A stretch of DNA of 64,000 bases, taken from NCBI RefSeq assembly GCF_003334355.1, contig NZ_QOWP01000006.1; one strand, given 5' to 3'. Source of the DNA: Escherichia coli (GTDB lineage Bacteria > Pseudomonadota > Gammaproteobacteria > Enterobacterales > Enterobacteriaceae). The stretch's first letter is position 1. Every line of letters starts with the position of its first letter. A program made the position numbers and the translations under genes. The notes beneath the pieces are model-generated. The model ran no database searches and was not told where the DNA came from. It worked only from the letters and a program-made list of their open reading frames with translations. Of this stretch, positions 3,464 to 55,196 are shown in pieces.

Positions 3464-4750
3464 TTACGCGTTATAGGCATTCTCGCCGTGGCTGTTGACA
3501 TCCAGCCCTTCTCGCTCCTGCTCTTCCGGTACACGCAGACCAACCGTCAGATCCGCCAATTTGTAGCCGATAAATGCCACAACACCGGACCAGACGATCG
3601 TAATGGCGATGCTTTCCAGCTGTACCAGCAACTGATGGCCCATCGTCACACCTTCAGCGAAGCCCACGCCGCCCAGCGAGCTGGCGGCAAAAATCCCGGT
3701 CATGATACAGCCGACAATGCCACAAACGCCGTGCACACCGAAGACATCGCAGGGATCATCCACCCGCAGCAAGCGTTTGAGCATGGTAACGCCCCACAAG
3801 CCCGCCAGACCAGCTACCACGCCGATAATCAACGCGCCGCCAACCCCAATGTAGCCGCAGGCTGGCGTCACGCCGACCAGACCGGCAATCGCGCCAGAAC
3901 ACGCCCCCAGCAGTGAAGGCTTACCACGCAGCGCCCATTCACCGAAGATCCAGCCAAGAATTGCCGCCGCCGTTGCGACCACAGTATTCACAAATGCCAG
4001 TGCCGCGATTTCATTCGCCGTGCCCGCTGACCCGGCGTTAAAGCCAAACCAACCGATATAGAGAATGGCAGTCCCGGTGAAGACCATCGGCAGGTTGTGC
4101 GGTTTAAACGCCTCTTTACCGAAGCCCACGCGTTTTCCTATCAGATACGCGCCCACCAGACCGGCGATTGCGGCGTTAATGTGCACCACGGTGCCACCCG
4201 CGAAATCCAGCGCACCGTGAGAAGCCAGCAAACCACCGCCCCACACCATATGCGCAATCGGAATGTAAGAGAGCGTCAGCCATACCACCACGAAAATCAA
4301 CACAGCTGAGAAGCGGATTCGTTCCGCCAGCGCCCCAACTATCAAGCCGACGGTAATGCAGGCAAACGATCCCTGAAACGCCACGTGGATATACTGATAA
4401 ATGCTGCCCATCACCGCCGTCAGTTCGATGTTTTTCAGCATCAACCAGTTAATGTTGCCGAAGAAGTTGTTGCCCTCACCAAACGCCAGCGAGTAACCGT
4501 AAACCACCCAGAGAATACAGACCAGTGCAAATGTCACCGTCACCTGCGTCAGCATCGACAGCACGTTTTTGCCGCGAATCAACCCACCGTAAAACAGGGC
4601 AATCCCCGGAATAGTCATAAACAGCACCAGCGCAGTACAAATCATCATAAACGCATTGTCGGCTTTATCGGCCACCGCAGGTGCAGCCATTACCAGTCCC
4701 GGAAGCATCGCCAGTGAAGCAAGCCCAGTTTTTATCGTCGCTATCTTCAT
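3464..4750 (-). CDS. amtB: ammonium transporter AmtB
   Basis: 428 aa; N-terminal signal peptide MKIATIKTGLASLAMLPGLVMA; Amt family membrane protein; directly downstream of glnK. Confidence 0.97.
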   Translation of the reverse strand: MKIATIKTGLASLAMLPGLVMAAPAVADKADNAFMMICTALVLFMTIPGIALFYGGLIRGKNVLSMLTQVTVTFALVCILWVVYGYSLAFGEGNNFFGNINWLMLKNIELTAVMGSIYQYIHVAFQGSFACITVGLIVGALAERIRFSAVLIFVVVWLTLSYIPIAHMVWGGGLLASHGALDFAGGTVVHINAAIAGLVGAYLIGKRVGFGKEAFKPHNLPMVFTGTAILYIGWFGFNAGSAGTANEIAALAFVNTVVATAAAILGWIFGEWALRGKPSLLGACSGAIAGLVGVTPACGYIGVGGALIIGVVAGLAGLWGVTMLKRLLRVDDPCDVFGVHGVCGIVGCIMTGIFAASSLGGVGFAEGVTMGHQLLVQLESIAITIVWSGVVAFIGYKLADLTVGLRVPEEQEREGLDVNSHGENAYNA

Positions 4751-4779
4751 TTTTCGTTCCTGTTGCTGTGTGCCAGAGA

Positions 4780-5118
4780 TTACAGCGCCGCTTCGTCGGC
4801 TTCGCCGGTACGAATACGAATGACGCGTTGCAATTCAGCGACGAAGATTTTGCCGTCGCCAATTTTTCCGGTGTAAGCCGCCTTACTGACGATATCGATC
4901 ACTTCATCGAGTTGGTCATCAGCAATCGCCACATCAATTTTTACTTTTGGCAGGAAATTGACGCTGTATTCCGCCCCCCGGTACAGCTCGGCATGCCCTT
5001 TCTGACGCCCGAAACCTTTCACTTCGGTGACGGTCAGGCCCTGAATACCAATGGAAGATAACGCTTCACGAACGTCTTCCAGCTTGAATGGTTTGATTAT
5101 CACGGTCACCAGCTTCAT
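4780..5118 (-). CDS. glnK: nitrogen regulatory protein PII-2 (GlnK)
   Basis: ORF track 4780..5256 trimmed to ATG at 5116-5118 with GGAGG SD at 5125-5129; 112 aa, MKLVTVIIKPFKLEDVREAL... Confidence 0.95.
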   Translation of the reverse strand: MKLVTVIIKPFKLEDVREALSSIGIQGLTVTEVKGFGRQKGHAELYRGAEYSVNFLPKVKIDVAIADDQLDEVIDIVSKAAYTGKIGDGKIFVAELQRVIRIRTGEADEAAL

Positions 5119-5169
5119 AGATCCCCTCCGGTCAGAATTCGGTAATGGTTCTGCTACACGAAGAAGGTA

Positions 5170-5187
5170 TTGCAAGCGGTGTGCCAG
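5170..5187 (-). promoter_or_regulatory. sigma54 (-24/-12) promoter of glnK-amtB
   Basis: Minus strand reads CTGGCAC-ACCGC-TTGCAA, a match to TGGCAC-N5-TTGCA; about 50 bp upstream of glnK ATG. Confidence 0.75.
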
Positions 5188-5298
5188 AAATGAAAAACGA
5201 GAAAGAGAGCAGGAAGTTAAGAAGTTTGAAAATGAAAACGCACTATGACAGTGCACAGTGCGTTACATTTTTGCACCAACGATGAAATATTGCGCTAT

Positions 5299-8845
<3,547 letters not shown>

Positions 8846-18827: not shown

Positions 18828-18910
18828 AGAGCTCTCTCTTAGTTTAATTTCCGCCAGGTAATCAGATGACACGACTGTGCTTCACGCCATCTATTAACAT
18901 GTACGTCAGT

Positions 18911-18938
18911 ATATGGGGATGTTTCCCCCACATTCAAC
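18911..18938 (-). promoter_or_regulatory. sigma32 heat-shock promoter of lon
   Basis: Minus strand GTTGAAT-13 nt-CCCCATAT matches sigma32 consensus CTTGAAA-N13/14-CCCCATnT; 85-110 bp upstream of lon ATG. Confidence 0.7.
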
Positions 18939-18949
18939 GCCGAGAATAG

Positions 18950-18985
18950 AGGAAAAATTAAAGGGGAGATAAAATCCCCCCTTTT
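18950..18985. terminator. clpX terminator (hairpin with U-tracts on both strands)
   Basis: Plus AAAGGGGAGATAAAATCCCCCCTTTTTGG; minus strand hairpin GGGGGGA-uuuua-UCUCCCC followed by UUUAAUUUUU. Confidence 0.7.
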
Positions 18986-19014
18986 TGGTTAACTAATTGT
19001 ATGGGAATGGTTAA

Positions 19015-53381: not shown

Positions 53382-55196
53382 TTAGTTCATCCATACCGTA
53401 GCCGAAATGGCAGGCAAAGCCAGAATCCCGTCAGTCAGTTGCCCATGCCCTTCTTTGCATTGCCATTGCACGGCATTGAGAAACGGTGACGCGGGTAGCA
53501 CCACTTCACAGGCCTCGCCACGGTTGATTGCCACCAGTACACGTTGCTGATTCAGCACGCGGACAAATACCACCACGTTATCTTCCGCATACAGCACCTG
53601 ACAGCCGCCATGACGTAGCGCCTGACTTTTCTTACGCAGCGCAATCATTCGCTGGTACAGCGCGAATAACGCCGTATCCTGCTTTTCCACCTGCCAGGGG
53701 AACGGTTTACGGCAAAACGGATCGTTTTTGCCATCCAGTCCTACTTCATCACCGTAATAAATGCACGGTACACCAGGCCAGGTGAACAGCCAGACCACCG
53801 CCAGCGGCAGGCGCGCAATATCCCGACCGAGCAGCGTTTTAAATCGCGCAGTATCGTGGCTGTCGAGCTGATTAAACATACGTAATTGTTGTTGATGAGA
53901 AAGCCCTGCGCGGTAATTATCCATCCAGGCCATACAGGTTTGGGCATCAATTTGCTGCGGATCGTAAGAGATATCGGTATTGGCAAGAAATCCCCACAAC
54001 GGGAATGTGAAGCCACGATAGTTCATGGCGGCATCTTCCACATCGGCCTGTAACCATTGCCGTGCATCGCCAAAATGTTCGCCGACAATATACGCTTCCG
54101 GCTGGGTTTCTTTCGCCGCTTCGGTGATCCCGGCAACGTGCTGCATATTATTGCGCGCCCCACCCGCCTCCCCCAGCATATGCACCACATCCAGCCGCCA
54201 GCCGTCCATATTCCACGGCGCTTTCAGCCAGTGGCGGACAATACTGTCTTCCCCGCGATAAATTTCATTCACCAGACTTTCCGACTGATAATCCAGCTTC
54301 GGCAAGCTGGCATAGCCAAGCCAGTCGAGCGCCGTGCCATCATCACTAAACGAGTACCAGTCGCGCCAGGGCGATTCGGGGTTGTGACAAGCACCACCCG
54401 TGCCACGATTATGCCTGTCAAACCAGGCATGGGAATCGCCACTGTGGTTAAACACGCCGTCCAGCACCAGCCGCATTCCCAGCTGCTGCGTATTGTGTCG
54501 CAAACGCAGCAACGCCCCATCACCGCCAAACTGCGGATCGACATGGCGATAATCCTCGGTATCGTATTTATGTACGCTGGGAGCTTTAAACACCGGATTG
54601 AGATACAGCGCCGTCACGCCAAGTTTTTTCAGATACGGCAGTTTTTCGCTTATCCCGTCCAGATCGCCGCCATAGAACGTTGATCCGCCCGCCTGCGCCG
54701 TGACCGGTTCATCCCAGTCACGCAATATGATCTCTTGTCCGGCTGCGTGATGGTAATAGACATGATCCTGTTCAGCTTCACGAGGAAGACTACGGGCGAA
54801 ACGATCAGGGAAGATCTGATAAAAAATCTGATCCGCAGCCCATTGTGGGCCGATATCCGGTACATCAACGGCAAACTGCTCCAGTCGTGCCGGCGGCATT
54901 CGGCTGAAGCCCTGCGGTGTAAACCAACGCTGGCGATCGTGCCAAAGCAATTTGAAACTATAACGCCGCCGGGGTTGTCCGCTGGAGAGATCGATCGCCG
55001 CCCGCCATGCGGTGACGCCTGGCTGCGGCTGACTGCGCTGCTTATGCATCGGTACTGACATTTCTTCGTTATCGTGTTCTGTACGCAGCATAATGCGCTG
55101 CGGTGGGTCTTCGCCCGTCAGCCACAGTGTAATGAGCAGTTGATCTTTGCTTTGTTTAACAAATGGGGGCACCGGCAGGTGCCATGCATTTAACAT
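53382..55196 (-). CDS. malZ: maltodextrin glucosidase
   Basis: ORF track 53382..55199, second ATG 55196 gives 604 aa ([15 protein letters not shown]...); GH13 alpha-amylase family. Confidence 0.95.

Follow-up and report, generated by a model that had tools for sequence, protein, structure and literature searches.

We are highly confident that the spacer between mdlB and glnK of Escherichia coli holds the classical promoter of glnK-amtB, made up of a sigma54 element and an NtrC enhancer at 5278..5239, with occupancy and dependence known from the literature. Positions are those of the window, the whole 64-kb stretch of DNA that was analysed, and a window position p converts to NC_000913.3 position 472598 + (5118 - p). 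The genes around the spacer are mdlA, mdlB, glnK, and amtB, in that order and all on the minus strand. glnK (coding sequence at 4780..5118 according to the gene calls) encodes PII-2 and is the first gene of glnK-amtB, and amtB lies at 3464-4750. Because the glnK ATG occupies 5118..5116 and the stop codon of the co-directional mdlB occupies 5301..5299, both on the minus strand, the region 5119-5298 is exactly the 180-bp mdlB-glnK spacer. Identity to E. coli K-12 MG1655 is 100% over mdlB-glnK-amtB and over the stretch 4700-5700, which occurs in 5424 of the 5426 complete E. coli genomes. The mdlB-glnK-amtB synteny is kept in all 14 of the 14 Enterobacterales loci in which it was followed. Exact-protein look-ups with E. 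coli GlnK returned Escherichia only, and variants of the protein led to Citrobacter-like and Klebsiella-like lineages. The promoter, glnKp, is curated in EcoCyc and RegulonDB as a sigma54- and NtrC-dependent promoter of glnK-amtB, and it was reportedly studied by van Heeswijk in 1996 and by Atkinson in 2002. The locus described here is that same locus, with the same 42-nt leader and no difference from it. The region 5119-5298 is a real, ordinary, and already well-studied nitrogen-regulated promoter region. No Rfam family was found in 4700-5700. Elsewhere in the window, the Rfam matches above threshold are to the 4.5S/SRP RNA (ffs) and sraA, at 1164-1260 on the minus strand and 18899-18994 on the plus strand, and the 64-kb window contains no tRNA genes.

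The sigma54 promoter, CTGGCACACCGCTTGCA, is located at 5187..5171 on the minus strand, where it is identified by a pattern match, by conservation, and by a published sigma54 motif. A reading made earlier from the sequence only had described CTGGCACACCGCTTGCAA at 5187..5170 of the minus strand as a -24/-12 element, and this was confirmed, with the GG at 5185/5184 and the GC at 5173/5172. All three strings that the sequence-only reading quoted were in fact found where it had placed them. In TGGCACACCGCTTGCA (5186..5171) the GG and GC doublets are exactly 10 nt apart, and there are 0 mismatches to the pattern TGGCAC-N5-TTGCW. A perfect match to this pattern occurs once in the 64-kb window, compared with 0.14 expected. 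When one mismatch is allowed, the count in the window is at chance level; such one-mismatch sigma54-like 16-mers, no more numerous than chance predicts, stand at 38254-38269 (plus strand) and 54390-54405 (minus strand). The element begins 68 nt upstream of the glnK ATG and is in the sense orientation. A comparable element is found 59-104 nt before the glnK ATG in 15 of 15 Enterobacterales loci fetched, and a sigma54 element is also present upstream of glnK in many other Gammaproteobacteria.

Published genome-wide work places sigma54 at the same bases. Sigma54 ChIP-seq reported the motif CTGGCACACCGCTTGCA with its centre at 471761 (U00096.2) and a distance of 42 nt to glnK (PMC4591121). This coordinate converts to window position 5179, the exact centre of the 17-mer described above. 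The same glnK 17-mer is listed by a sigma54 gSELEX study (PMC8743547), and deletion of rpoN lowers glnK 18.8-fold (PMC2831329). The 17-mer is the glnK motif listed in three genome-wide studies, and in a literature search for the literal sequences of the sites it was the only one found in print. Since the C of the GC doublet (5172) is placed at -12, the transcription start is predicted near 5160 (5159..5161, minus strand), and the resulting 42-nt leader agrees with the motif-derived distance of 42 nt (PMC4591121). The element at 5187..5171 is the consensus sigma54 promoter of glnK-amtB, its occupancy and its rpoN dependence being taken from the literature. Within E. coli, a C>T polymorphism at 5176 changes the -12 region to TTTGCA.

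The predicted leader ends in a conserved block at 5119-5140, GAATTCTGAC(C/T)GGAGGGGATCT, which contains the glnK Shine-Dalgarno sequence GGAGGGG (5122..5128, minus strand). The block is nearly invariant across Enterobacteriaceae, its conservation exceeds what a ribosome-binding site alone would need, and in Yersinia, Rahnella, and Acerihabitans AATTC...GA..GG can still be made out. In one complete E. coli genome, NZ_OZ040756.1, the match to the spacer breaks near window position 5133, within the glnK leader, and is found at two places in the record, which suggests an insertion or rearrangement between the glnK promoter and its start codon.

Candidate NtrC sites were identified by scoring 17-mers against TGCACCA-N3-TGGTGCA. 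The method was checked first on glnAp2 of MG1655, where it recovered sites at -140 (13/14) and -108 (12/14), matching the published positions of -140 and -108 (PMC1865078); it also returned weak downstream sites at -89 and -68 (9/14). The best candidate of the glnK spacer is the proximal 17-mer TGCACTGTCATAGTGCG at 5239..5255 on the minus strand, centred at 5247 (-87). It contains the palindrome GCACT-N5-AGTGC that had been noticed at 5240-5254, and that palindrome proved to be the core of a conserved 17-bp predicted NtrC site. The 17-mer scores 10/14 with both the GCAC and GTGC cores intact. Against TGCACC-N5-GGTGCA it has 3 mismatches, and matches of this quality number 32 in the window vs 36 expected; the tandem arrangement of dyads occurs once vs 0.35 expected. 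As single-sequence matches, the dyads are no rarer than chance in the window, and the case for their reality therefore rests on position and conservation.

In the proximal site, GCAC...GTGCG is invariant across 15 Enterobacterales species, in loci that were anchored on the site, and the flanks are without conservation. These species are E. coli, E. albertii, two Citrobacter, three Enterobacter-named species, Superficieibacter, a Klebsiella-named species, two Yersinia, Rahnella, Acerihabitans, and two Photorhabdus. The sequence-only reading had proposed a conservation check in Salmonella and Klebsiella, and the GCAC...GTGCG core is present in both a Klebsiella-like group of loci (L114-L123), a very abundant lineage that is probably Klebsiella, and a Salmonella-like locus (L156), which was reached through the sigma54 18-mer published for Salmonella glnK (PMC3844500) and is presumably Salmonella. 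In the Salmonella-like locus the proximal site is stronger (12/14) and centred at -117. A gapless alignment of E. coli and E. albertii has 2 mismatches in the 40 positions of 5278..5239 vs 23 in 71 flanking positions (Fisher p=0.0007), the latter being made up of 6/20 upstream and 17/51 downstream of the block. Among the 9 most divergent E. coli alleles, 11 of 221 nt are variable and none of these positions falls in 5239-5275, an underpowered comparison in which ~1.8 would be expected. On this comparative evidence, the predicted proximal site is the universal core of the glnK enhancer.

A second, weaker candidate site lies further upstream. It is anchored on TGGTGCA (5272..5278, minus strand), a perfect NtrC half-site that was singled out by its conservation and that stands 25-31 bp upstream of the proximal centre. 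The distance of this half-site to the proximal site is fixed in Escherichia, Citrobacter, three Enterobacter-named species, Superficieibacter, and the probable Klebsiella lineage. Yersinia, Rahnella, and Acerihabitans instead have TGCACY, at almost the same position. No distal site is recognisable in the Salmonella-like locus or in Photorhabdus, which have the proximal site only, and among the Enterobacteriaceae lineages the Salmonella-like locus alone is without TGGTGCA. The partner of the half-site is ambiguous between a 20-bp and a 33-bp register. The first register, TGCAAAAATGTAACGCA (5259..5275, minus strand), is centred at -107, 20 bp from the proximal centre, and pairs TGGTGCA with the promoter-ward TAACGCA; its score of 9/14 is like that of the weak glnAp2 sites. 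The 20-bp spacing is also found in Citrobacter, the Enterobacter-named species, Yersinia, Rahnella, and Acerihabitans, and the register fits the left-half-type TGCACY carried by the last three genera. Against it, the probable Klebsiella lineage keeps TGGTGCA and loses TAACGCA. The second register, ATTTCATCGTTGGTGCA (5272..5288, minus strand), is centred at -120, 33 bp from the proximal centre, and pairs TGGTGCA with bases away from the promoter. Its right half is perfect and its left half is conserved in no genus; its 33-bp spacing resembles that of glnAp2 (32 bp) and of Pseudomonas glnK (33 bp). We conclude that the putative distal element is weaker and lineage-variable and is anchored on one good half-site, with partner bases that cannot be fixed from sequence.

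Further NtrC-like sequences occur in and around the spacer in individual genera. In E. coli, AGCGCCTGAATAGCGCA across the mdlB stop codon (5307..5291, 9/14) was considered as a possible third site and was rejected, since it has no conserved counterpart in E. albertii or Citrobacter. In seven loci (L004-L006 and L010-L013), which belong to Superficieibacter, Yersinia, Rahnella, Acerihabitans, and two Enterobacter-named species, a third NtrC-like 17-mer of the form GCACC-N7-GCA, for example TGCACCAAAATCAGGCG, stands at a fixed distance of ~61 bp upstream of the proximal site. A similar 17-mer is found in Enterobacter sp. Ag1 ~11 bp further out, at ~72 bp. The third 17-mer is absent in Escherichia and Citrobacter, whose spacers are shorter.

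Control of glnK-amtB by nitrogen limitation, which the sequence-only reading had given as known, is borne out by published NtrC binding and dependence (PMC4066584; PMC3844500). NtrC ChIP-seq assigned a 39.7-fold peak to glnK-amtB, and glnK mRNA is not readily detected after deletion of glnG (PMC4066584). The ChIP-seq interval, 471741-471821 (U00096.2), corresponds to window 5119-5199. It covers the promoter and leader and lies 40-100 bp downstream of the dyads, and so is evidence for the region rather than for the individual NtrC sites. A gSELEX peak of NtrC is also present at the mdlB/glnK spacer (PMC8743547). Under nitrogen limitation, the activity of the Salmonella glnK promoter increases ~1600-fold, from 1.1 to 1778 Miller units (PMC3844500). 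In starved cells, NtrC-specific activity at glnKp is 400-fold higher, and glnK needs more phosphorylated NtrC than glnA and fires only on starvation (PMC3870243). The lower scores of the predicted glnK sites (10/14 and 9/14) than of those at glnAp2 (13/14 and 12/14) fit this greater need. The two promoters are alike in activator, in sigma factor, in the 17-bp dyad type, and probably in having more than one site on roughly one helical face (PMC1865078; PMC3870243). They differ in that glnAp2 has weak 'governor' sites, of which none is recognisable at glnK, and in that the glnK sites lie nearer the promoter (-87) than those of glnAp2 (-108/-140). The spacing between sites is 20 or 33 bp at glnK, depending on the register, and 32 bp at glnAp2. 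Unlike glnAp2, glnK is without an overlapping sigma70 promoter, and its sites directly follow a co-directional gene.

Of the ways in which the promoter could work, the standard mechanism is the best supported. Sigma54 RNA polymerase would sit at 5187..5171 as a closed complex that cannot melt the DNA by itself. Under nitrogen scarcity, the enhancer block 5278..5239 would be bound by phosphorylated NtrC, with the main contact at the 17-bp dyad at -87 and a weaker neighbour anchored on TGGTGCA (5278..5272). NtrC would then oligomerise, presumably loop the ~50-bp T-rich spacer to reach the polymerase, and open the promoter with ATP. Transcription would begin near 5160 and yield the 42-nt leader. 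No IHF-like site was found within one mismatch in the enhancer-promoter spacer, where the loop would be ~60 bp.

The predicted enhancer centre lies ~80-150 bp upstream of the sigma54 start: Escherichia has it at -87, the shortest distance among the genera sampled, and elsewhere it stands at -97, -118, ~-130, and ~-141. The five distance classes (n=5) differ by near-integral helical turns, with R=0.85 and p~0.02 at 10.5 bp per turn and no significance at 10.0. This is suggestive and would fit a face-of-helix requirement. A sigma54 element with an NtrC-like arrangement is also found upstream of glnK in Pseudomonas and other Gammaproteobacteria. In the Pseudomonas glnK loci (L020, L031, L034, L035, L042, and others) TGGCAAGCTTTCTGCT stands ~200 nt or more before the ATG, so that the leader would be much longer than that of Enterobacterales, and NtrC-like sites are located at -109 and -142, 33 bp apart. 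In Enterobacter sp. Bisph1 and in the Salmonella-like locus, GC-rich hairpins occur where the DNA would loop, between the NtrC site and the sigma54 element; their sequences are GCCCGC-ACC-GCGGGC, with a T-run behind it, and GGCGCGTC-N8-GACGCGCC.

The promoter also carries a known device against read-through. At glnKp, an anti-Shine-Dalgarno 'insulator' has been described that consists of a CT-rich region of 7 nt centred at -4 (Levy et al., bioRxiv 10.1101/086108). It corresponds here to the CT-rich stretch CCTTCTTC at 5160..5167 on the minus strand, just upstream of +1, and the glnKp stretch is the type example of such an insulator. In folds of the native context, the stretch at 5160-5167 pairs with the glnK Shine-Dalgarno sequence (5122-5128) in read-through RNAs. 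The sigma54-initiated leader does not contain the CT-rich stretch and folds weakly, so that sequestration of the Shine-Dalgarno sequence was reproduced only in read-through RNA. The published work used synthetic constructs; the upstream mdlB (0 mentions) and the hairpin and T-run of the enhancer were not considered in it (Levy et al., bioRxiv 10.1101/086108). A C>T polymorphism at 5167 in E. coli alters the first base of the anti-Shine-Dalgarno stretch.

Further features overlap or adjoin the enhancer. Directly after the proximal site comes a T-run, TTTTCATTTT (5229..5238, minus strand), which is not part of the NtrC consensus. In 10 of 10 Enterobacteriaceae lineages, 5-8 of the 8 nt after the site are T, compared with 1-2 in Yersinia, Rahnella, Acerihabitans, and Photorhabdus. 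A terminator scan detected a terminator-like RNA hairpin at 5237..5264 on the minus strand, with the arms AACGCACTGTG and CATAGTGCGTT, 11 pairs, and a 6-nt loop. Written out, it is AACGCACTGTG-CACTGT-CATAGTGCGTT followed by TTCATTTTCA. The hairpin consists of the end of the distal 17-mer, a 3-nt spacer, and the proximal site, and it starts 35 nt past the mdlB stop codon. An 86-nt fold is more stable than its shuffles (z -3.6). Across 9 Enterobacteriaceae, 92% of the helix positions are paired, and one pair is changed on both sides (CG in 5, UA in 4); this pair falls within the 3 nt that separate the 17-mers, bases that NtrC is not expected to read. An alternative fold, a short palindrome hairpin, is paired equally well. 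The long hairpin is not kept in the probable Klebsiella lineage or in the Salmonella-like locus, and the short palindrome hairpin remains in both.

These features raise the possibility of a dual use, in which the enhancer DNA also encodes an intrinsic terminator on the RNA of mdlAB, formed by the hairpin at 5264..5237 (or a shorter one) and the U-run at 5238..5229. Together with the anti-Shine-Dalgarno stretch, such a terminator would keep read-through from mdlAB from expressing glnK-amtB when nitrogen is plentiful. We regard this reading as tentative and rather doubtful. In its favour, the hairpin is flagged by the terminator scan and by the stability of the fold, it begins 35 nt after the stop codon of a gene that is co-directional in 14 Enterobacterales loci, and it is the sole consistent terminator-like feature in the spacer of the 9 Enterobacteriaceae; in Yersinia artesiana and Photorhabdus cinerea, distinct hairpins occur at other places. 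The T-run, which the NtrC consensus does not call for, is shared by all 10 Enterobacteriaceae lineages and missing from the other genera; it and the one fully compensatory pair point the same way. A second layer of insulation against read-through has been shown experimentally at glnKp (bioRxiv 10.1101/086108), and it folds as expected in the native context. The likeness to intrinsic terminators consists of a stem-loop and then a U-run (UUUUCAUUUU) shortly after the stop codon of a co-directional gene. Unlike typical terminators, however, the stem is built of transcription-factor half-sites and is A/U-richer, and the U-run UUUUCAUUUU is interrupted in E. coli. Moreover, any palindromic NtrC site gives rise to a hairpin, the one covarying pair may reflect a single evolutionary event and was judged against weak shuffle controls, the long hairpin is lost in the probable Klebsiella lineage and the Salmonella-like locus, and the T-run could instead serve the DNA bending needed for looping. 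The possibly incomplete supplementary files of one 3'-end mapping study contain no entry for an mdlB 3' end (PMC7815308), and mdlAB is probably weakly expressed.

A much less probable alternative concerns the shape of the distal site. The sequence-only reading, which offered its enhancer boundaries as inference, had drawn it from TGCACCAACGATGAAATATTGCGC, read at 5272-5295 on the plus strand, as a dyad of TGCACCA (5272-5278) and GCGC (5292-5295). The first half stood up, since TGCACCA (TGGTGCA on the minus strand) is a perfect and conserved half-site, and the GCGC does resemble GCAC; the partner and the spacing did not. The proposed dyad spans 24 bp, and a canonical NtrC dyad spans 17 bp. Conservation of the block does not extend past 5278. 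Of the 6 differences between E. coli and E. albertii in the 20 positions of 5298..5279, five fall in 5298..5289, where GCGC lies, and no other genus keeps anything at the position of this partner. A polymorphism of E. coli at 5286 lies next to it. The pairing is unsupported because of the end of the block, the difference in E. albertii, the polymorphism, and the 24-bp span, and we consider it very unlikely that NtrC uses the distal site in this form. Least credible of all, at a level we judge close to negligible, is the view that the dyads are chance matches and that NtrC acts elsewhere or indirectly: their frequency as single-sequence matches would allow it, but the proximal core does not vary within a whole bacterial order even though its flanks diverge, the position of the sites relative to the conserved sigma54 promoter is fixed, and NtrC occupancy and direct dependence are published.

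The preferred reading of the spacer thus remains the sigma54 promoter with its NtrC enhancer, and the comparative analysis delimits that enhancer to 5239-5278, with the proximal site alone being universal and the distal site varying among lineages. Such a lineage-variable distal site fits the idea of a deliberately weak glnK enhancer. The one reading with some novelty is that the enhancer may double as a terminator for mdlAB. If it is true, the glnK enhancer of Enterobacteriaceae would be a two-level element, which binds the activator as DNA and terminates transcription as RNA made from mdlAB. The 180-bp spacer of Escherichia would then have enhancer and terminator merged in one 40-bp block, and a transcriptional layer would be added to the published translational insulation at glnKp.
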